DNA of 64,000 nucleotides. Origin: a bacterium. Its GTDB lineage: Bacteria > Synergistota > GBS-1. Both the position numbers and the translations under genes were made by a program. The notes under the pieces are model-generated. The model worked only from the letters and a program-made list of their open reading frames with translations. It did no database searches and was not told the DNA's origin. The stretch is from assembly GCA_030153785.1 (NCBI GenBank), contig JASKLF010000004.1, positions 17,551-81,550 on the forward strand, given 5' to 3'. Below are positions 10,461 through 59,755 of this stretch, in pieces (positions within the stretch are counted from its first letter, which is position 1; each line of letters opens with the position of its first letter).

Positions 10461-11669
10461 TTGAGGTTTTCCTTCTCAAAGTTTGTGTTTTTGGTGTTAG
10501 GGGTTTCCTTTATGTTTTTTTTCTTGGCGTGGAAGGAATGTGGGACTTTATGGTTGATTAAGCGGGAGTTTTATGAGGAAACAAGATACGATTTTGAGAA
10601 GGAGCAATTAAGGGCTAGCAGAAGAGAGAGGCTTTATTCTTATTATGAATTGGCAACTTCCGATATGCGTATGGTGCTTGGTTCTTCAGCGGAGGGTTCC
10701 CTGGAAATTCCTCCCCTTCCGGAGATTAAGAAAATCCCATTCGTGGCTTATAGAATCGATGGAGTAATTGGTAGGGGGCTAAGTTTAGCTATTTCAGTTG
10801 ATAGGCTTGGCAAGCTATTTGCTTTAGGGGTTAACTCCTATTTGGGCGTAAAAGTCCCAAGTGGGGGGAAGCTGTTTTTGGAAATTGAAGGTGAAGTCCT
10901 TGCCAAAGAAAAGGAAAACCCGCTTAGGGTTGTTACCTATGTTGTTAAGCCGGGAGATACGTTGTGGGATATATCTAAAAAATTTAATATTTCAATTGAT
11001 ACTATAATAAGTGCGAATGAGCTTAAAAATCTGGACCTTCTGAAAATAGGCCAGGTATTGAAAATACCTAATGTGTCTGGGGTATTTCATAAAGTTAAAG
11101 CTGGAGATAGCTTATACGAGATTGCCAAGCTTTATAAGGCAGACATCAAGGAAATAGAAAAATATAACATAGATAAGGACTTGAAAACCTTAAAAGTGGG
11201 GACGTTAATTTTTGTTCCTGGCGGGAAACTCCCAGAAAAACCGAATCCTTCGCGGCCTCGTTGGCTTGCCTCTCGTGGAACTTCACGGACATTTATGTGG
11301 CCTTTAAGGGGGAGAATTACGTCACGATTTGGTTGGAGGCGGGATCCATTGTCAAGACGAAGGGAGTTTCATACCGGTTTAGATATTGCTGCTGAAAGGG
11401 GGGCGTATATAAGGGCTTCTCGTAGTGGCAAAGTTGTTTACGCAGGATGGCGGTCGGGATATGGGCTCTTGATAGTTATAGATCATGGTGGTGGATGGGA
11501 GACTTATTACGCTCATTGTAGCCGTGTAAATGTTAGGAAGGGACAGTATGTAAGGCGAGGAGAAGTAATTGGTAGAGTTGGAAGTACAGGTAGAACTACA
11601 GGTCCTCATTTGCATTTTGAAGTGAGGAAAGGTGGTAGACCCTTGAACCCCTTATGTTATCTTCGTTGA
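10461..11669 (+). CDS. LysM-domain / M23 family metallopeptidase (NlpD-like)
   Basis: An N-terminal TM anchor, two LysM repeats (YVVKPGDTLWDISKKF; HKVKAGDSLYEIAKLY) and a C-terminal M23 domain (HTGLDIAA...GSTGRTTGPHLHFEV). The start is ambiguous: GTG 10455 and TTG 10461 are both possible. The ATG 10365 listed in the ORF track overlaps rho. Confidence 0.75.
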   Translation: MRFSFSKFVFLVLGVSFMFFFLAWKECGTLWLIKREFYEETRYDFEKEQLRASRRERLYSYYELATSDMRMVLGSSAEGSLEIPPLPEIKKIPFVAYRIDGVIGRGLSLAISVDRLGKLFALGVNSYLGVKVPSGGKLFLEIEGEVLAKEKENPLRVVTYVVKPGDTLWDISKKFNISIDTIISANELKNLDLLKIGQVLKIPNVSGVFHKVKAGDSLYEIAKLYKADIKEIEKYNIDKDLKTLKVGTLIFVPGGKLPEKPNPSRPRWLASRGTSRTFMWPLRGRITSRFGWRRDPLSRRREFHTGLDIAAERGAYIRASRSGKVVYAGWRSGYGLLIVIDHGGGWETYYAHCSRVNVRKGQYVRRGEVIGRVGSTGRTTGPHLHFEVRKGGRPLNPLCYLR

Positions 11670-36555: not shown

Positions 36556-38554
36556 CGAGATGCTCAAGCTTAGGGTTATATCTCATAAGTCGGTGAAAGA
36601 AGAAATAGTTGATGCTCTCTTAAGGTTGGGAGTAATAGAATTTGTTAGCCTTCCTTCTGCATTGGGGGACAAAATTCAGGCTCTTGGTGTGATTAGAGAA
36701 GAGGATGGAAGGGCTTTATCGGAAATGGAGTCCTTTCTCAACGACTTAAGGATTGCCATAGAATTTCTTGATAATGCTAATGAAGATAGAAGGGGCTTAT
36801 TTGATTCTCTTCTTGGAAGGAAAATTTACATTCAGAGCAGTGAGTTCGAAGATAGAGTTAAAAAACTGGATTACAAAAGGGTAGTTGAGGAAATAAGGGG
36901 TGTTGAGAGAAAGCTTACAGAACTTAGAAATAAAAGAGCTCAGTTGTCTTCAGAGAGAAAGCTTCTTGAGGACTGGAAGGATTTAAATATTCCATTGGAG
37001 TTTTTTGAAGAAGGAACTTTGGTAACAGCGGGGCTTCTTGGTTCTATCAAAACAGAGGAGTTTGATAAATTTTTGCGGGAAGTAGAAGAGAAGCTTTCCT
37101 TGTGGGAATTGTATACCCTTCCTTCTTCTCCTCAATTTAAGACATTTGCTTTAGTTTATTTAAGAGAAGAGCACGAGAATCTGCAAGATATCATTAAAAA
37201 TTATAGTTTTAACGCTGTGGTTTTGCCCAAGAGGAGGGGAACAGTAAGAAGGGTTCTTGAGGAACTAGATAGGGAAATAAAGGAACTGGACAAAGAAAGA
37301 GAGTTGCTGGTTTCAAAAGTTAAGGAGTATGTTTCCTTCCTCGATGACCTTAAAATAGTGTACGATTATCTTTTGATTGCCTTTACTAAGCAAAAAGCTA
37401 GTATGGATTTTTTGTCCACTTCAAAGGTTTTTGTCTTTGAAGGGTGGGTAAGAAAGAAAGACAGGGCTAAAGTGGAATCTCTCTTTAAGAGATATTCAGC
37501 CGTTGTAGCCTATTCTTTTGAGGAGCCTTCTATTGATGAGGAAGTTCCCGTGGTAATAGAAAATCATCCTTTGATTAGACCTTTTGAGGTTTTAACAGCT
37601 CTTTATGGGCTTCCTCAATATGGTAAAGATATAGATCCTACTCCGTATGTTGCCCCCTTTTTCTTTGTTTTCTTTGGGCTTTGTTTGTCTGATGCCGGTT
37701 ATGGGGTTATAATGACTTTCTTAATAGGTTGGTTGTTGCTAAAACACGGTTCTAGACTTTCCTTTAGTGTTAAAAGATTTATGATGCTTTTACTGTTAGG
37801 TGGAATATCGACCATTCTATTCGGGGCTCTCCAAGGAGCATGGTTTGACGGTTTGTTTGCTCAAGTTTCTTGGTTAAAGGGGTTAGACATAGCCTTGAAT
37901 AGAATTAAGATTATGGATCCCCTTGAAGATCCTATGAAGCTTTTAGTTATAGCTTTGGCATTGGGTATAGTTCATGTTTTTCTTGGACTTATTCTTAAGG
38001 CTTATGTAAACGTAAGGCAGGGCAATATTAAGGATGCCTTGTTTGATCAGATAGGATGGCTCTGGTTTCTTACTTCCCTCCTTTTCCTTGGTTCTGTCAG
38101 GGCTGGATGGGTTTCGAGTTCCTTAGCGGGTCTTTCTAAAGCTATGGCTATAGGAGGAGCGTTATTTTTGATTCTTACCCAAGGGAGAGGGGAAAGAAAC
38201 ATTTTGAAAAAGGCGATTAAAGGGGTAATTAGCTTGTACGATGTTATGGGATATTTAAGCGATGTGCTTTCGTATAGCAGAATTCTTGCTCTGGGATTGG
38301 GAACCACGGTAATAGCTATGATAGTTAACCTTTTGGCCTCAATGGTTCTTAAGGTTCCTGTGATAGGGATTGTTATCGCTTTGCTTATTCTTATCGTTGG
38401 CCATACCTTAAGTCTTTTAGTAAATGCGCTGGGGGCTTTTGTTCACTCCACGCGTTTGCAGTATGTGGAGTTCTTTAGTAAGTTTTACTCTGGTGGTGGA
38501 AAGGCTTTTGAGCCATTTACTATTAAAACGAGATTCACGGAGATAAAAGAGTAG
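36545..38554 (+). CDS. atpI: V/A-type ATPase subunit I (a-subunit, 116 kDa family)
   Basis: 669 aa. An N-terminal cytoplasmic coiled-coil half and a C-terminal polytopic half with a conserved Arg-containing helix (LSYSRILALG). Confidence 0.85.
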   Translation: MAVNEMLKLRVISHKSVKEEIVDALLRLGVIEFVSLPSALGDKIQALGVIREEDGRALSEMESFLNDLRIAIEFLDNANEDRRGLFDSLLGRKIYIQSSEFEDRVKKLDYKRVVEEIRGVERKLTELRNKRAQLSSERKLLEDWKDLNIPLEFFEEGTLVTAGLLGSIKTEEFDKFLREVEEKLSLWELYTLPSSPQFKTFALVYLREEHENLQDIIKNYSFNAVVLPKRRGTVRRVLEELDREIKELDKERELLVSKVKEYVSFLDDLKIVYDYLLIAFTKQKASMDFLSTSKVFVFEGWVRKKDRAKVESLFKRYSAVVAYSFEEPSIDEEVPVVIENHPLIRPFEVLTALYGLPQYGKDIDPTPYVAPFFFVFFGLCLSDAGYGVIMTFLIGWLLLKHGSRLSFSVKRFMMLLLLGGISTILFGALQGAWFDGLFAQVSWLKGLDIALNRIKIMDPLEDPMKLLVIALALGIVHVFLGLILKAYVNVRQGNIKDALFDQIGWLWFLTSLLFLGSVRAGWVSSSLAGLSKAMAIGGALFLILTQGRGERNILKKAIKGVISLYDVMGYLSDVLSYSRILALGLGTTVIAMIVNLLASMVLKVPVIGIVIALLILIVGHTLSLLVNALGAFVHSTRLQYVEFFSKFYSGGGKAFEPFTIKTRFTEIKE

Positions 38555-46156: not shown

Positions 46157-46981
46157 TTATTTAGGTCCTTCTATTGCCAATTTGAATTTTCTTGTGAAAT
46201 TTTTGACTTCCTCAAGGATGGTTTCTTTTTCTAGCATTCCTGTTGATATAAGATTATCAATCATTTTTATAAAGGCGCTTCCTACAACTATACCATCAAC
46301 AAAAGGGGAAACTCTTTGAGCTGTTTCAGGAGAGTCTACGCCGAAGCCCAGAACCATCGGTAGGGGAGAGAGCTTGCGTATCTGAGGTAGGTCTCGGGAT
46401 ATCCAATCGAATAGAGGCTTTTTACTGTCTCCTGTAATTCCTATTAATGATACGCAGTATATAAACCCGCTTGCATATTTAATGATTTCCTTCACTCTTT
46501 GTATTGGTGTAACAGGCGTTATCATCATTATAGTTTTTAACCCTGCTCTTTGGGCTTCTAAGTATAAGGTTTCGTTTTCGTCGAAAGGAAGATCAGGAAT
46601 TATTATGCCTGCTATTCCTGCTTTTTTAGCATCGCTCACAAAATTTTCTATTCCATAAGCTAAAATAGGATTGTAATAGCTCATTATAACAAGCGGTGTA
46701 TCCACTTTATAAGATACTTTTGAAAGCATCTTGAGTACGGACTTTAGACCGATACCTTGTTTTAATGCAATTTGGCTTGACTTTTGAATTGTTACTCCGT
46801 CTGCAAGGGGGTCTGAGAAGGGTATGCCAATTTCTATGATATCTGCTCCACTTTCACTTAGACTGTATACTATTTCTTCGAACAGTTCTATGCGAGGGTA
46901 ACCTGTTGTTATGAATGGGATGAGTACCTTTCCTTTTTTAAAGATTTCTTCAAACAAGTGTTTCTCATTCATTGTTATCAC
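46157..46981 (-). CDS. trpA: tryptophan synthase alpha subunit
   Basis: The PFSDPLADG motif is present. It is the last gene of the trp operon. Confidence 0.9.
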
Positions 46982-48179
46982 CTTCTTCTACTCCAAGACT
47001 TTTTATCAAGGTTGACATGTCTTTGTCTCCTCTTCCCGAGAGATTTACGATTATAATCTCATTATTTTTAACTACCTTCGTGAGCTTGAGGGCATAAGCT
47101 ATCGCATGAGCGCTTTCAAGTGCTGGAATTATCCCCTCTGTTCGGATAAGGGTCATAGCTGCTTCTATGGCTTCCTCGTCACTTACAGTTACGTAAAGCG
47201 CCCTTCCAGTTTCTTTCAAAAATGCGTGTTCTGGCCCTACGCCAGGGTAGTCTAGACCGGCGGAAATAGAGTAGGGATTTATTATTTGTCCATTTTCGTC
47301 TTGAAGAACATAGGACTTGCAACCGTGTAGAACTCCTATCTTACCTGCATTAAGCGAGGCTGCATGAAGTCCAGACTCTACCCCTTTTCCTCCTGCCTCG
47401 ACGCCTATCAATTTTACTTGGACGTCATCTATAAAGGGATAAAATATACCAATTGCGTTACTTCCTCCTCCTACACATGCCACTATATAATCCGGTAATC
47501 GATTTTCCTTTTCTAATATCTGTTGTTTTGTTTCCTCCCCGATGATTTTTTGGAAATCCCTTACTATAGTGGGGTATGGATGAGGTCCTACTACAGAGCC
47601 TATAAGGTAATATGTGGTTTCTACGTTTGAGACCCAGTCTCTTATGGCTTCATTAGTTGCATCTTTTAAAGTTTTGCTTCCCGATGAGACTGGAATGACT
47701 TTAGCTCCTAGCATTTTCATTTTGTAAACGTTAGGCTTTTGCCTCTCTATGTCCTCTTCCCCCATGTATATATTACACTCCAAGCCGAGCTTAGCGCACA
47801 CGGTGGCTACAGCAACTCCATGTTGACCGGCCCCTGTTTCCGCTATGATTCTTTTTTTTCCCATTTTTTTCGCTAAAAGTATTTGTCCTATAGCGTTGTT
47901 TATTTTGTGTGCTCCCGTATGGGCTAAGTCTTCCCTTTTAAGGTAAATTTTTCCTCTACCTTGTTCTTTAGATAGCCTTTCTGCATAATACAAGGGAGTT
48001 GGTCTACCACAGTAATCTCGGAGTAAAAGGTTTAACTCTTCTCTGAAAGAGGGGTCATCTTTGAGCGAGTAGTATACTTTTTCAAGTTCCTCTAATGCGG
48101 GAATTAATGTTTCTGGAACAAATCTTCCCCCAAATTCCCCGAAATATCCTGTTTTCTTTCTTTGGTCTAACATATTCAA
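46965..48179 (-). CDS. trpB: tryptophan synthase beta subunit
   Basis: 404 aa with the PLP-Lys motif [10 protein letters not shown]. Confidence 0.95.
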
Positions 48180-48799
48180 TCCTCCTTTATCGATCTTACC
48201 AATTTTATAAGCTTTTCCATTTTAGAGTGGTCCTTTATACCAGGTTCCACTTCTAAAGAGCTATTGACATCTATGGCGTCTGGTTTTACCTTTTTTATGG
48301 CATCCATAACGTTATGAATTCCTATCCCTCCCGCTAAGATGAAGGGTTTTCTCTTGCTATAGTTTCTAATTATAGACCAATCGAAGGTCTTTCCTGTTCC
48401 ACCTGTTTCTTTGCCGACTTTTGTGTCGAAGAGTAGCATATCCGCTACCTTGGTGTAGGATTCTACTAAATTAAGATCTTCTTTCCCTTCTATTGGAATT
48501 GCTTTTATGGTTTTTAACGGAACTTTTTCTATCAATTCCGGGCTTTCTGACCCGTGAAATTGTATGTGGGTGAATATGCGCGATCTTATTATTTTTTCTA
48601 TCTCTTCGGGTGATGGGTCTTTAACGACGGCAACTAAAGGATAAAAGGGGGGAACTGCTTTTGATAGATTTATAGCTTCATCAAGGGATACCTGTCTTTT
48701 ACTTTCACAAAGTATGAATCCTATTGCATCAAAGTTTAGTTCTACTGCCTTCTTGAGGTCTTCCTCCCTTTTAATCCCACATATCTTTACCTTGAGCAA
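48176..48799 (-). CDS. trpF: phosphoribosylanthranilate isomerase
   Basis: 207 aa PRAI TIM barrel (KICGI...GFIL). Confidence 0.85.
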
Positions 48800-48815
48800 C
48801 TTGGGTAAACCTCCC

Positions 48816-49565
48816 TTAAGCAGAGATTAGCTCCCTTACCTTTTCTAAAGGATTTTCTGATGTTAGAAGGGAGTATCCTACAAGTATCCCTTTTATTCCT
48901 GACTTTTTTAGCTTCCTTACCTGATCTGGTGAGGATATACCGCTTTCAGATATTACCGTTACTTCCTTATCTCCGAAGATTTCCTTTATGACGGGCATTA
49001 ATCTTATGGTGTTTTCTATTGAGACTTTAAGCGTTTTTAGATTCCTGTTGTTTATTCCTATCAAGCTTACATCTGCTTTAAATGCTTTTTCGATGTCTTT
49101 TTTATCGTGAACCTCTACAAGAGGAATCAAACCCAGTTTACGGCAAAGCGTTACAAAGGATCGTAGTTTTTTTGAAGACAATATAGAGCTTATGAGCAAA
49201 ACTAAATCTGCGCCCAAGAAAAAGCTTTCGTATATTTGGATTTCGTCTATGATAAAGTCCTTTCTAAGGATGGGAAGTTTTGTTAGATTTCTTACTTTCT
49301 TTAATAGTTCTGCATCGCCGTTGAAGAATTTTTCTTCTGTAACTACAGATATTGCGCTTGCTCCTCCTTTTTCATAGGCTTCTATTTGAGATGCTATATC
49401 AAGATTGGCCTTTATAACTCCTGTAGAGGGAGAGGAGAGTTTTATTTCCCCTATTAGGAAAAAATCCTTTTCTTTGAAAAACGGATTGAGAGACTCTCCC
49501 TTTTTTATTCGATTTAATGTTTCTTTTTTGGCGTTAATAACTTCTGAAAGAAAGTTTCTTTTCAT
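48816..49565 (-). CDS. trpC: indole-3-glycerol phosphate synthase
   Basis: 249 aa with the IGEIKLSSPSTG motif. Confidence 0.9.
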   Translation of the reverse strand: MKRNFLSEVINAKKETLNRIKKGESLNPFFKEKDFFLIGEIKLSSPSTGVIKANLDIASQIEAYEKGGASAISVVTEEKFFNGDAELLKKVRNLTKLPILRKDFIIDEIQIYESFFLGADLVLLISSILSSKKLRSFVTLCRKLGLIPLVEVHDKKDIEKAFKADVSLIGINNRNLKTLKVSIENTIRLMPVIKEIFGDKEVTVISESGISSPDQVRKLKKSGIKGILVGYSLLTSENPLEKVRELISA

Positions 49566-49567
49566 TT

Positions 49568-50596
49568 TTAATTCATCTCCCTGGTAAGCTCTATTAGCTC
49601 TTTTAACTTTTGTTTTGCTTTTCCACTGTCGACGATTTCGGCTGCAAACTCTATTCCCTCTTTGATTGTTTTTGTCTTTCCAGCAATCATGAACACAGCT
49701 CCTGCGTTGAGTAATACTATGTCTCGTTTCGGGCCTTTTTCTCCATTTAGAATTCTTAGAGCTATAATTGCATTTTCTTTTGGTTTTCCTCCCTTAACTT
49801 CGTTTAGGTTGCTCCTTTTGATACCTACTTCTTCAGGGGAAAAAGCAAATTCATTTATTTTCCCATCCTCATCTAGCAGGGCAACTTTGTTAATTCCCCA
49901 TGTGCATAGTTCATCGGCACCGCTTCCGTGAACAACCATTGCCTTTTTTCTTCCCAATTTTTTAAGGGCTTGGGCAATTATTCCGAGCAGGTTTTCATCG
50001 TATACCCCTATTAATTGATGTGTCGGTAAAGCTGGGTTGATAAGAGGTCCTAGCAGGTTGAAGAGTGTTCTTGTTTTTAACTCTCTTCTTACAGGAGCCA
50101 CGTTTTTCATTGCAGTGTGGAATGCAGGGGCAAATATGAAGCCGATATTGACCTCTTCTATACATTGTTGAACTTTTTCGGGTGAAAGTTCTATTTTGAC
50201 TCCAAGTTCTGCTAATAAATCTGCACTACCACTTTCGCTGGAAATGGACTTGTTGCCGTGTTTTGCAATGGGAACTCCTCCTGCTGCGCAGATTATAGCT
50301 ACTATTGTAGAAATGTTAAAGGTTTTTAGCATGTCTCCACCTGTTCCACAGGTATCTACTAAGACTTCCTTTTTTACATTGACCTTGACAGCTTTTTCCA
50401 ATAATGTAGTAGCAGCCCCGCTTATTTCTTCTGGGGCCTCCCCCTTTGCTCGAAGGGCTATTAATAAAGCTCCTGTTTGAGTACTTGTAATTTCTTTTGA
50501 TATAATTAGGTCCATCATTTTTGCTGCTTCTTCAGAGGAAAGGTTCTCTTTTCTAAGCATCTTTTCTAACAGTTCCTTGTAAATCATTTCAGACAT
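49568..50596 (-). CDS. trpD: anthranilate phosphoribosyltransferase
   Basis: 342 aa with the GTGGD motif. Confidence 0.9.
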   Translation of the reverse strand: MSEMIYKELLEKMLRKENLSSEEAAKMMDLIISKEITSTQTGALLIALRAKGEAPEEISGAATTLLEKAVKVNVKKEVLVDTCGTGGDMLKTFNISTIVAIICAAGGVPIAKHGNKSISSESGSADLLAELGVKIELSPEKVQQCIEEVNIGFIFAPAFHTAMKNVAPVRRELKTRTLFNLLGPLINPALPTHQLIGVYDENLLGIIAQALKKLGRKKAMVVHGSGADELCTWGINKVALLDEDGKINEFAFSPEEVGIKRSNLNEVKGGKPKENAIIALRILNGEKGPKRDIVLLNAGAVFMIAGKTKTIKEGIEFAAEIVDSGKAKQKLKELIELTREMN

Positions 50597-51182
50597 TTTT
50601 TAATTCCACCGTCCTTTTTATCTCCGTCTTTAGGAAATTTTTTAGAATTTTTTTCCCTTCGGTGGTTAGAATGGATTCTGGATGAAATTGGAGTCCAAAC
50701 GTGGGAAATCTCTTGTGCATGATTCCCATGATTTCCTTATCTTCGCTTTCTGCAATTATTTCAAGATCTCCTGGTAAACCGTGCCTTTTAACCACCAATG
50801 AGTGATACCTTGTAGCTAAGAAGGGGGAGGGGAGTCCTTCAAGGATTCCTTTATTGGAATGGTAAATCATTGATGTTTTTCCATGCATTGGAGCTTTGGC
50901 TCTTTCAACTCTTCCTCCAAATACAAAACCGATACATTGATGTCCTAAACATATTCCTAATATGGGAATATACTTGTAAAATCTTTTTACAACTTCGTTT
51001 GAGATCCCAGCATCTTGAGGGGTTCCTGGTCCGGGCGATATAACTATATGGGAGGGGTTTAACTTCTCTATATCTTCTATCTTTAACTTATCGTTCCTGA
51101 ACACAATTACCTCGTCCATTTCAGATAGATATTGAACCAAGTTATATGTAAAGGAATCATAATTATCTATTACTAAAATCAT
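50589..51182 (-). CDS. trpG: anthranilate synthase component II (glutamine amidotransferase)
   Basis: 197 aa class I GATase with catalytic GICLGHQ and His/Glu residues. Confidence 0.9.
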   Translation of the reverse strand: MILVIDNYDSFTYNLVQYLSEMDEVIVFRNDKLKIEDIEKLNPSHIVISPGPGTPQDAGISNEVVKRFYKYIPILGICLGHQCIGFVFGGRVERAKAPMHGKTSMIYHSNKGILEGLPSPFLATRYHSLVVKRHGLPGDLEIIAESEDKEIMGIMHKRFPTFGLQFHPESILTTEGKKILKNFLKTEIKRTVELKNV

Positions 51183-51184
51183 CT

Positions 51185-52669
51185 TTATCCCTCCTTTATC
51201 TTTGTTAATGGTTGTTTATGATGGCGATTTTCTATCACCCTCTTGACTGCTTTAAATAGGCCTCGTGCCTTATGTAGCGTTTCTTCGTATTCCGTTTCTG
51301 GTTTTGAATCGCTTACTATACCTGCTCCCGTTTGAATGTGGAACCTGTCGTTGAAGAAATAAATCGTTCTGATGCTTATACACATTTCCATATTGCCGTG
51401 GAATCCTAAGTATCCTACTGCTCCGGCATACGGGCCTCTTGCTTCTTTCTCGAGGTCATTTATTAACTCCATGGCTCTAACTTTAGGGGCTCCTGTTACT
51501 GTTCCTGCTGGGAATGTAGCTTTCAGAACATCTATGAGGGTTTTATCATCTCTAAGGTCTCCCTCAACCTGGGAAGCAATGTGCATTACATGAGGGTAAT
51601 ATTCTATTTTCATTAATTCGGGGGCAACGACACTCCCAGGTTTACAAACCCTTCCTAAGTCGTTTCGGGCTAAATCTACCAGCATCACATGTTCTGCCTT
51701 TTCTTTTATGTCTTCGATAAGTTCTTTTTCTAAGTATTTATCTTCTTGAGGATTTTTCCCCCTTTTTCTTGTTCCTGCAAGAGGTCTTGTCACTACCCTT
51801 TTGTCTTTGACTTCTACAAGTATTTCAGGCGAGGATCCTATAAGTTTGATTTCTGGGAAATTAATAAGGAACATATAGGGAGAGGGGTTTTCGTTTTCCA
51901 AGGCGAATAGAAGGTCTATGGGATCGATATTGCTCTCAAAAGAAAACCTCTGGGATATTACTATCTGAAAAATTTCTCCTGCCAGAATGTAGTTTTTTGC
52001 CTCCTCCACCATCTTCAAGTATTCTTTTCTCCGAGTATTTGAGACAAAGTTTCTAATGTAAAAAAACTCTTCCGTTTCTGTATTTTCTTCCGCTCCTCTT
52101 AAAGCTTTTTCTATCATAAAAGAAGCTTCTCTAAATAGCCTTGTTAATACAGTTTTTTCATCTTCACCCTTTTCAAAGTTTTTGATTACATATAGTTTCT
52201 GATTTTCGTGGTCGATGGCTATTATGTCTTTAAAAAGCCCGAAATAAGCTGTTGGGAGATCGAGAGTTTTTAACTTCCTATGATGTTCTGCATGGTATAA
52301 TTCTTCCCATCTGTCTATCATTTCATAGCCTATGTAGCCAAATAACCCTCCACAAAAAGGGGGTAGTTCTTTAGGAAACTTTTGAAAAGCTATTTCTTTC
52401 TCTAATAGCTGTTCGAAGTCGGACCCTCTGTCTTCTCTGATATGCCCGTTTACTTCGTAGAAGAAATTGTTATTTTTCTTGTAAAGCTTAAGCACCTTGT
52501 GGGGATTAGCTCCTATGTAGGTGTATTTTTTGCCTCCTCTGTAAGAGGCATCTACGCTCATGACAAAGGAATGAGAGGTTTCCGAGAGTAGGTTTTTCAA
52601 TATTTCTGGGGAGTAAAAGTTTGCGGGAAGAGGGAGAGAAATGTAAATCGTCTTTATCTCTTTCTCCAC
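51185..52669 (-). CDS. trpE: anthranilate synthase component I
   Basis: Chorismate-binding domain. There are two in-frame GTG candidates (52678 and 52669). The second has better SD spacing (GGAGG-8 nt-GTG). Confidence 0.9.
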   Translation of the reverse strand: MEKEIKTIYISLPLPANFYSPEILKNLLSETSHSFVMSVDASYRGGKKYTYIGANPHKVLKLYKKNNNFFYEVNGHIREDRGSDFEQLLEKEIAFQKFPKELPPFCGGLFGYIGYEMIDRWEELYHAEHHRKLKTLDLPTAYFGLFKDIIAIDHENQKLYVIKNFEKGEDEKTVLTRLFREASFMIEKALRGAEENTETEEFFYIRNFVSNTRRKEYLKMVEEAKNYILAGEIFQIVISQRFSFESNIDPIDLLFALENENPSPYMFLINFPEIKLIGSSPEILVEVKDKRVVTRPLAGTRKRGKNPQEDKYLEKELIEDIKEKAEHVMLVDLARNDLGRVCKPGSVVAPELMKIEYYPHVMHIASQVEGDLRDDKTLIDVLKATFPAGTVTGAPKVRAMELINDLEKEARGPYAGAVGYLGFHGNMEMCISIRTIYFFNDRFHIQTGAGIVSDSKPETEYEETLHKARGLFKAVKRVIENRHHKQPLTKIKEG

Positions 52670-52697
52670 TTTCCTCACCTCCTCTAAGCTTATGCTT

Positions 52698-52731
52698 ATA
52701 AAATAAAAAGGGCCGCTCTCCTGAGCGGCCC
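52698..52731 (-). terminator. second (trpE-proximal) intrinsic terminator in the trp leader
   Basis: The minus-strand RNA GGGCCGCUC-AGGA-GAGCGGCCC is followed by UUUUUAUUUU. It lies ~25 nt upstream of the trpE RBS. Confidence 0.5.
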
Positions 52732-52747
52732 TTTTACACGCAGTAAA

Positions 52748-52787
52748 CTAAAACAAAAAGGGCCGCGACCTTTTAGTGCCGCGGCCC
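52748..52787 (-). terminator. trp attenuator terminator (3:4 hairpin)
   Basis: The minus-strand RNA GGGCCGCGGC-ACUAAAAG-GUCGCGGCCC is followed by UUUUUGUUUU. Confidence 0.6.
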
Positions 52788-52807
52788 CTGCTTTCTTAAG
52801 GAATATT

Positions 52808-52915
52808 TTAGCAACAGGGTAAATACCGCGGCAGGCTTTCAACCTGCCACCACCAGTTATTTATTTCTCTTAAAGTTGTTAAGCTTGAAAGCTTAAAGCT
52901 TCTAAATATGCTCAT
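52808..52915 (-). CDS. trpL: trp operon leader peptide (35 aa) with three consecutive Trp codons
   Basis: ATG (52915-52913) ... TGG TGG TGG (52855-52847) ... TAA (52810-52808) encodes MSIFRSFKLSSLTTLREINNWWWQVESLPRYLPCC. A GAGGAGG RBS lies 6 nt upstream. It is absent from the ORF track because it is short. Confidence 0.7.
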   Translation of the reverse strand: MSIFRSFKLSSLTTLREINNWWWQVESLPRYLPCC

Positions 52916-52941
52916 CTTTATCCTCCTCACTGTTGAGTTAG

Positions 52942-52970
52942 AGTATACATTTTCTGTCTTCTTTTGTCAA
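52942..52970 (-). promoter_or_regulatory. sigma70-type promoter TTGACA-N17-TATACT driving trpL-trpEGDCFBA
   Basis: On the minus strand, the -35 is at 52970-52965 and the -10 at 52947-52942. The leader RBS starts ~15 nt downstream. Confidence 0.5.
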
Positions 52971-58393: not shown

Positions 58394-59755
58394 ATGAGAA
58401 ATTTGTACAAGTATTTAATTTATGTGTCTTTAGCTACTTTTACATGTATTAATTCTTCCTTTGCAAGAGATCCCGTAGGAGCGGCGACTTTGAAGGAAAA
58501 TCCTAACTTGCCGGTTGATTATGTATGGATTTTGATATGTGCTTTTCTTGTCATGTTTATGCAGGCTGGTTTTGCCATGCTGGAATCTGGTTTTTGTAGG
58601 GCAAAGAATGTGACCAACATCATTGCAAAAAATTTAATTGACTTTTGTTTAGGTTCGATTATTTTCTTCGCTTTCGGTTATGCCTTGATGATGGGGGACG
58701 ATTGGCACGGTCTAATTGGAACTACAGGCTGGTTTATGTTTGGGGAGTATTACGATGTAAGCAAGTACTTGAACATGTTTTGGATGTTGGTGTTTTGTGC
58801 TACTAGTGCCACGATAGTTTCTGGAGCTGTTGCTGAAAGGCTCAAGTTTGGAGCATACCTTATTTACACTTTAGTGGTTACGGGTATTATTTACCCTATA
58901 TACGGACACTGGGCATGGGGAGGTGGTTGGCTTTCTAAGATTCCTTTAGGTTTGGGTTTTTTAGATTTTGCAGGAAGTGGAGTTGTACACGCTTTAGGTG
59001 GATTTGTTGGTTTAGCGGGGGCTTTAGTTTTGGGCCCCAGGTATGGTAAGTATAAAAATGGAGTGCCTCAGGCTATTCCCGGACACAGTGTATCTTTAGC
59101 CGCTTTAGGTGTTTTAATATTGTGGTTTGGTTGGTTTGGTTTTAATCCAGGAAGCACATATAGTGCTCACCACTTAAAAATCTCTATTGTGGCTCTTAAT
59201 ACGAACTTAGCTGCTGCGGCAGGTGGGATATCTGCGCTATTAATTTCTTATTTCAATACTGGAAAGTGGGATATTACTATGGCATTAAATGGAGTTATTG
59301 CGGGATTAGTTGCTATAACCGCATCTTGTGCCTGGGTTGAGGGATGGGCTGCTATACTTATAGGCTTTATAGCTGGTGGTTTGATGTATTTCAGTGTTAG
59401 ATTATTAGATTCAGCTGGTATTGATGATCCTGTTGGCGCTGTTAGCGTTCATGGAATTTGCGGATTATGGGGACTGTTGACGGTAGGAATTTTTGCTGAT
59501 GGAACTTATGGCGTATATTCTGTTGAGCCTCCTTATGCTGTTGGTTTGCTTTATGGTGGTGGATGGGGACAGTTCTTGGCTCAGCTTGTGGGATTAGTGG
59601 TGTTGTTTATATGGGCTTTTGGTGCGGGGTATGTGTTGTTTAAGGTAATGGATAGACTGTTCGGTATTCGCGTTTCACCAGAAGAGGAGCTTAAAGGATT
59701 GGATATTTATGAGCATGGTGTTCCAGCTTATCCTGATTTTTATAGTAAGGTATAA
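58394..59755 (+). CDS. amt: ammonium transporter (Amt family)
   Basis: 453 aa with a signal peptide and polytopic Amt/MEP/Rh motifs (FAMLESGF, GAVAERLKF, twin-His region). Confidence 0.9.
   Translation: MRNLYKYLIYVSLATFTCINSSFARDPVGAATLKENPNLPVDYVWILICAFLVMFMQAGFAMLESGFCRAKNVTNIIAKNLIDFCLGSIIFFAFGYALMMGDDWHGLIGTTGWFMFGEYYDVSKYLNMFWMLVFCATSATIVSGAVAERLKFGAYLIYTLVVTGIIYPIYGHWAWGGGWLSKIPLGLGFLDFAGSGVVHALGGFVGLAGALVLGPRYGKYKNGVPQAIPGHSVSLAALGVLILWFGWFGFNPGSTYSAHHLKISIVALNTNLAAAAGGISALLISYFNTGKWDITMALNGVIAGLVAITASCAWVEGWAAILIGFIAGGLMYFSVRLLDSAGIDDPVGAVSVHGICGLWGLLTVGIFADGTYGVYSVEPPYAVGLLYGGGWGQFLAQLVGLVVLFIWAFGAGYVLFKVMDRLFGIRVSPEEELKGLDIYEHGVPAYPDFYSKV

Follow-up and report, generated by a model that had tools for sequence, protein, structure and literature searches.

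A predicted trp attenuator of Synergistota in which one leader-peptide sensor may control two serial terminators

The trpE-trpG-trpD-trpC-trpF-trpB-trpA operon on the minus strand of the window (by which we mean the whole 64,000-nucleotide stretch of DNA analysed) is preceded by a promoter, a short Trp-rich open reading frame and two terminator-like hairpins in series. This arrangement raises two questions: by what mechanism is the operon controlled, and how could one leader deal with two terminators? We propose that trpEGDCFBA is governed by a ribosome-mediated attenuator built as a six-segment relay, in which two successive intrinsic terminators would stand under a single sensor. We put the probability of this reading at roughly 0.6. 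That the leader is a trp attenuator at all is, to judge from the sequence, near certain.

The genes of the operon were assigned from Pfam matches (Chorismate_bind/Anth_synt_I_N, GATase, Glycos_transf_3, IGPS, PRAI, PALP and Trp_syntA). The trpE product read from 52669 has 494 amino acids and is 100% identical to a database protein, P0001, from an uncultured 'bacterium' MAG. The gene 5' of the leader, which encodes a GATase_2 / glutamate synthase protein, is divergent, and so no transcription enters the leader from that side. Across the window (1-64000), GC skew is very strong, at +0.25 to +0.35 for the most part, but declines to about -0.07 in the 48-52 kb interval occupied by the minus-strand trp operon; thus the excess of G tracks the coding strand. 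The features of the leader are collected in Table 1.

Table 1. Features of the trp leader and its operon in the window. Helices and their roles are predicted.
Feature	Position	Strand	Details
sigma-70-type promoter	52942..52970	minus	TTGACA 52970-52965, 17-nt spacer, TATACT 52947-52942
Shine-Dalgarno GAGGAGG of leader ORF	52922..52928	minus	read directly; 6 nt 5' of ATG
Leader-peptide ORF (trpL-like), 35 codons + UAA	52808..52915	minus	ATG 52915-52913, UAA 52810-52808
Three tandem Trp codons (proposed sensor)	52847..52855	minus	UGG x3; DNA UGGUGGUGG invariant in eleven distinct relatives
P1 (segments 1:2), anti-antiterminator hairpin	52828..52850	minus	GUGGCAGGUU-GAA-AGCCUGCCGC; opens in Trp codons 2 and 3
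Antiterminator AT (segments 2:3)	52777..52833	minus	outer 52833-52825/52785-52777; inner 52819-52813/52792-52786; -26.7 kcal/mol
Terminator T1 (segments 3:4)	52750..52788	minus	GGGGCCGCGGC-ACUAAAAG-GUCGCGGCCCU (52788-52759), then UUUUGUUUU
Proposed second antiterminator AT2 (segments 4:5)	52725..52766	minus	GCGGCCCUUUU (52766-52756) with AAAAGGGCCGC (52735-52725)
Terminator T2 (segments 5:6)	52700..52735	minus	AAAAGGGCCGCUC-AGGA-GAGCGGCCCUUUU (52735-52706), then UAUUUU
trpE ribosome-binding site and start	52667..52684	minus	GAGGAGG 52684-52678, GTG 52669-52667
Regulated operon trpE-trpG-trpD-trpC-trpF-trpB-trpA	46157..52669	minus	Pfam matches

The promoter agrees with the consensus at 11 of 12 positions, reaches the joint top score in a scan of 20 kb, and is the only promoter-like match on the minus strand of the leader. 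The same TTGACA -35 box, in most cases followed by 17 nt of spacer, lies 5' of the leader ORF in five related loci (L001, L002, L004, L094 and L096), and the leader ORFs of relatives are likewise preceded by purine runs resembling a Shine-Dalgarno (SD) sequence. The window ORF encodes a 35-residue peptide, MSIFRSFKLSSLTTLREINNWWWQVESLPRYLPCC. Tryptophan makes up 1.2% of the residues in the long ORFs of the window, which contain no WWW in 18,032 residues, and the probability that a 35-residue ORF would contain WWW by chance is ~6e-5; the leader pattern exceeds chance. The string TGGTGGTGG occurs four times in the window, against 0.34 expected. Its plus-strand copies (11486-11494, 38491-38499 and 59554-59562) are GGU-GGU-GG glycine runs in long genes and do not encode Trp.

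Downstream of the Trp codons, the RNA can form two mutually exclusive sets of helices. P1 is a stem of 10 bp (52850-52841 with 52837-52828) that contains GGCAGG-UUGAAAG-CCUGCC (52848-52830), with an energy of -17 kcal/mol at 37 C and, when the isolated piece is refolded, -7.2 at 70 C. Within AT, UGCCGCGG (52833-52826) can pair with CCGCGGCA (52784-52777), which belongs to the 5' arm of T1, and the stop codon of the leader ORF sits in the AT loop. T1 has 12 pairs, 9 of them G-C, and a U-tract (-23.7 kcal/mol); T2, with 13 pairs, 8 of them G-C, and a U-tract of its own, is on a par with it (-23.8 kcal/mol). No other terminator-like hairpin in 20 kb comes close to these two in strength, and a second terminator was found in every relative examined. 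The 3' arm and U-tract of T1 also form a perfect 11-bp duplex with the A-tract and 5' arm of T2 (AT2, -20.6 kcal/mol). All five helices retain negative free energies at 70 and 80 C.

Much of this layout had been recognized in the initial annotation, which placed the promoter and SD where we find them and gave the ORF and its three UGG codons correctly to the base. The hairpin that it described at 52848-52830 is real and does open in the third Trp codon, but is longer than described, and the antiterminator pairing of UGCCGCGG with CCGCGGCA, though correct, extends further and includes an inner helix. The initial annotation regarded the whole as a complete device. The parts that it described are all present, but it missed T2, and was in that respect incomplete rather than wrong; similarly, the parts inside its interval of 52808-52970 are right, while the interval ends before either terminator.

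How might such a leader work? Transcription would start ~20 nt 5' of the leader ORF. When charged tRNA-Trp is plentiful, a translating ribosome would pass UGG-UGG-UGG and reach the stop codon. Since that codon lies in the AT loop, the ribosome would there cover segment 2b together with the inner helix, and P1 (1:2) would re-form in its wake. T1 would then arise from the pairing of segments 3 and 4, and transcription would end; any polymerase leaking past T1 would meet T2 (5:6). If the leader were not translated, 1:2, 3:4 and 5:6 would likewise form. If tRNA-Trp were in short supply, the ribosome would stall at the Trp codons and cover segment 1, leaving segments 2 and 3 to pair as AT and block T1. 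The freed segment 4 could then pair with segment 5 as soon as it is made (AT2), blocking T2 and letting the polymerase enter trpE. The leader thus reads best as a relay in which the 1:2/3:4/5:6 set would terminate twice and the 2:3/4:5 set would read through both terminators.

To examine these alternatives in silico, we folded the leader and its relatives, both complete and as nascent prefixes. Unmasked, the window leader adopts P1+T1+T2, its fold scoring z = -4.6 against dinucleotide shuffles. As a mimic of the stalled ribosome, 16 nt were masked from the first UGG, this footprint being an assumption. With the Trp region masked, the prefix up to the T1 loop (before segment 4) has AT as its minimum free energy (MFE) fold in eight of the initial nine leaders. 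In the remaining one, L093, T1 had been misidentified and the prefix was therefore cut wrongly, but a longer L093 prefix shows AT; in both leaders added later, AT is the MFE fold too. When the masked prefix is extended to the T2 loop (before segment 6), AT+AT2 is adopted by the window, L092, L093, L002 and L004, and L001 falls ~1 kcal short of it, a near tie. When the ribosome is instead placed at the stop codon, T1 forms in 9/9 leaders. Within this model, therefore, the claim of the initial annotation that a stall at WWW favours the antiterminator holds. What these folds capture is the thermodynamic preference of each nascent prefix; timing, kinetics, the extent of the ribosome footprint and the response to Trp itself are inferred. 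At equilibrium, the complete RNA still favours T1+T2 when segment 1 is masked (it folds at -61.1 kcal/mol, whereas AT and AT2 add up to about -47), so only prefix (co-transcriptional) folding is informative and read-through would depend on kinetic trapping and the order of synthesis. Read-through relies on the order of synthesis in every attenuator.

Relatives were gathered through TrpE homologues and exact-pattern scans; the scans also returned ~75 chance matches in high-GC coding DNA, which were discarded on reading. The layout with three Trp codons 5' of trpE is present in eleven distinct Synergistota-type sequences. Five further leaders are of the window type, all directly 5' of trpE: L001 ('Synergistetes bacterium' GCA_026414785.1; TrpE 65% identical), L092 and L093 (65% and 64%), L002 ('bacterium GBS-1', a name that presumably points to a hot spring; 59%) and L004 (an uncultured Synergistia of 60% G+C; ~41%). 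Although TrpE identity is only 41-65%, the blocks UGGUGGUGGCAGG, GCCUGCCGCGG, GGGCCGCGG and CGCGGCCC are invariant in the six leaders. Their peptides, by contrast, have 14-20 residues of unrelated sequence before WWW, differ in frame after WWWQ, and stop 2, 8, 12 or 13 codons past WWW. Across relatives the peptide keeps only (N)WWW(Q), while its length, N-terminus, C-terminus and stop position vary. Thus, the constraint is on the RNA and the Trp codons and not on the peptide product.

Within the window's group P1 is invariant, and the outer helix of AT, 97.9% paired in the 6 sequences, is almost so. Among the leaders compared, the inner helix stays paired while its sequence changes (CCCUG/CAGGG, CCUGCU/AGCAGG, CUUGCU/AGCAAG and CCCUU/AGGGG). 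Because MAFFT misaligns the L004 T2 and the inner antiterminator helix, helices were compared sequence by sequence. A contig scan with patterns back-translated from non-conserved stretches of TrpE gave no matches, and a protein search for close relatives of the L004 TrpE, meant to yield more leaders of its lineage, found none.

More distant Synergistia share the anatomy: a short leader with (N)WWW(Q/R), a third Trp codon that opens P1, then AT, a long 3:4 helix and a final terminator. Their peptides include MLFLRLQNWWWRAP in Thermanaerovibrio velox, MIHAFSNQNWWWQAF in a Synergistaceae MAG, MKRILSGQNWWWQTY in Dethiosulfovibrio peptidovorans, MIRVPTTRNWWWQAF in a Thermovirgaceae MAG and MTQILTNRNWWWQAFQVCRQEPA in a JGI metagenome contig. 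P1 shows compensatory changes here, from A-U to G-C in L094 and from G-C to A-U in L098. In L102 (JGI Ga0236240_1002375), CAA replaces the UGA/UAA stop that the closest relatives have in the P1 loop, and the peptide is 7 codons longer (...NWWWQAFQVCRQEPA); the position of the stop is thus flexible within the family. In L094, L096, L098, L101 and L102 alike (5/5), segment 3 carries the motif UUGGAGG(C/U)GGAUCC in the 5' arm of the 3:4 helix, which holds an SD-like GGAGG. A covariance model built on the window's group gives 70-114 bits for its six members but only 24-28 bits for the distant Synergistia, which is no more than for chance loci picked by pattern. The model therefore does not establish that the two groups are homologous, a view that is based on context and anatomy; the same model finds no second copy of the leader in the window.

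Taken together, the SD and ORF, the Trp codons, the exclusive helices, the lack of a later promoter and the conservation in orthologous leaders support the ribosome-mediated trp attenuator predicted by the initial annotation. The orthologous leaders, to which it had pointed as a possible source of contrary evidence, possess both the Trp codons and the alternative pairing, an outcome in its favour.

Whether the attenuator extends to T2 is less clear. An attenuator of four segments could act at T1 only, with T2 an unregulated or leaky back-up that lowers expression and with the complementarity between segments 4 and 5 a legacy of terminator duplication. The window's clade offers some grounds for this: T1 and T2 share the GGGCCGC/GCGGCCC core, so that terminator duplication could by itself have produced the 4:5 complementarity, and a six-sequence alignment of the group gives no covariation signal in the P1, AT and T1 cores, which are invariant. 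We compared the 4:5 duplex with those formed after segment 4 had been shuffled 1000 times with its dinucleotides preserved. Four of the five distant Synergistia leaders show complementarity no better than that of the shuffles (p = 0.16, 0.46, 0.28 and 0.30), L098 alone reaching 0.02. In the window, the duplex is stronger than 999/1000 shuffles (p = 0.001), and the remaining members of its group give p = 0.000, 0.005, 0.003, 0.004 (L002) and 0.002 (L004).

The case of L004 speaks against control of T1 alone. Its T2 stem is unrelated (GGGGGAGGGGUCGA...), and its segments 4 and 5 pair through entirely different sequences, CGGCCCCUCCUCUU with GGGGGAGGGGUCG, the partner consisting of the end of the T1 arm and the tail (GGCCCCUCCUC). 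Its own two segments bind at -27.2 kcal/mol, better than all swapped combinations (-14.8 to -23.6). In addition, the inner stem and loop of T2 vary freely across the four closest relatives, while the stretch that would face segment 4 (AAAAGGGCCGC) does not change at all; in L002 a single base of that stretch is different. The only four copies of GGGCCGC in the 64 kb lie in the arms of T1 and T2, and the string is not a genome-wide terminator motif. Finally, T2 is as strong as T1, its tail ends 15 nt from the trpE SD, and the promoter scan detected no promoter-like site between T2 and trpE, where none would fit. A device countering T1 alone would therefore not express the operon, and an unregulated T2 would cancel what is gained by regulating T1. 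For these reasons we consider control of T1 alone unlikely, if still a serious competitor. The 4:5 relay is likely but unproven, and switching of the two terminators together by a base-pair relay appears to be the most likely arrangement. That one sensor with two serial terminators, the 3' arm and U-tract of T1 serving as antiterminator of T2, was the ancestral, phylum-wide form of trp control in Synergistota is a broader proposal, to which we give even odds.

Could the operon be controlled without a ribosome, by a T-box that binds uncharged tRNA-Trp, a TRAP-like protein or a Trp riboswitch? Such systems govern trp operons in Bacillota, and the nearest non-Synergistota TrpE relative that we examined, L100 from a Halanaerobiales MAG (GCA_029981855.1), has no Trp-rich ORF in its trpE leader. 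Instead, (G/U)AG triplets with 2-nt spacing (UAGUUUAGAUGAGUUGAGUUUAG) lie 5' of trpE at 1846-1868, with GAGUUGAG further upstream and terminator-like hairpins after the run. This run looks like a TRAP-type binding site, and the nearest relatives of TrpE outside Synergistota seem to use a different trp control. In the window leader, a TRAP site was considered and rejected: the longest (G/U)AG chain has 3 triplets, at the trpE SD, where nine to eleven are required, spaced by 2-3 nt and overlapping the antiterminator. Rfam 15 contains no family that matches the window leader or seven related loci at the gathering score, T-box (RF00230) has no match in them even at E <= 10, and, of the 32 matches that the window leader gives at E <= 10, none is to Trp_leader (RF00513). 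Two sub-threshold matches, BjrC1505 (36 bits, gathering score 50) and ylbH (29 bits, gathering score 50), were terminator-driven and were rejected. An invariant in-frame run of three UGG codons, with SD and start codon, would moreover have no role in any such system, and we regard them all as very improbable here.

With its strong promoter, SD, ORF and pair of terminators, the leader also has the shape of a stand-alone small gene. The ORF might then be a small-protein or sRNA gene in its own right, closed by the tandem terminators, with separate transcription of trpE. Here the 15-nt gap without a promoter-like site again tells against separate transcription; the unit is always immediately 5' of trpE, and the peptide is conserved at WWW only, with frame and length changing in relatives, all of which makes a stand-alone gene hard to credit. 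Arrest of the ribosome by a TnaC-like nascent peptide that senses free tryptophan rather than tRNA-Trp charging, which a short Trp-rich leader peptide might bring to mind, is the least credible of all, since only WWW and an RNA-constrained next codon are conserved in the peptide, and since tnaC is induced by free Trp, the wrong logic for a biosynthetic operon.

We therefore return to the six-segment relay. If it operates as proposed, it would multiply the efficiency of termination in the off state while not lowering the on state, and since hairpins are weaker in thermophiles, this could be of importance there. The leader would be a compact natural case of a single sensor gating two terminators, and possibly a design template for synthetic attenuators of high dynamic range. 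For annotation, it suggests that a leader ORF and a cis-regulatory RNA be marked upstream of trpE in such genomes. A full-text literature search found no paper linking Synergistota with a trp leader peptide. An entry in a genome-wide ncRNA survey, Thermovirga lienii NC_016148.1 1708951-1709286 upstream of trpB, is listed as an 'Unnamed' candidate (Stav et al., 2019; PMC6429828) and might hold a related Trp leader.

Among the closest known systems is E. coli trpL (RF00513), which likewise has a short ORF with tandem Trp codons in segment 1, a 1:2/2:3/3:4 switch upstream of trpE, and a ribosome at the stop codon that masks segment 2. However, the two have no similarity in sequence or structure model. 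The window leader has three Trp codons instead of two and 35 codons instead of 14, and, unlike trpL, a two-helix antiterminator with the stop codon in its loop and a second full terminator. Two serial terminators are also found in some Bacillota, where tandem T-box leaders of trp operons sharpen the response; there each T-box has a tRNA sensor of its own, whereas in the window leader one ribosome sensor would switch both terminators.

The chain of helices has a parallel in the hisL attenuator of Salmonella and E. coli, which Johnston and co-workers reportedly divided in 1980 into six segments, A-F. In hisL, A:B, C:D and E:F alternate with B:C and D:E to relay the position of the ribosome, much as 1:2/3:4/5:6 would alternate with 2:3/4:5 here. 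In hisL, however, only the last helix terminates, whereas 3:4 in the window leader has its own U-tract, and the codons are Trp instead of His. Helix chains in attenuators are a recognized concept (PMC4833913). Lineage-specific trp attenuators outside enterobacteria are represented by trpL/rnTrpL of Sinorhizobium meliloti and by the trp leaders of Corynebacterium and Streptomyces (PMC6614838, PMC1262725). In Sinorhizobium the released leader RNA and peptide have been shown to act in trans. These leaders differ from that of the window in having four segments, a single terminator and unrelated sequences. The attenuator predicted here overturns no concept. Its mechanism is of a known kind, while its form is new, lineage-specific and previously uncatalogued; with it, trp attenuation of the classical Yanofsky type reaches into Synergistota and one of the deep uncultured branches of that phylum.
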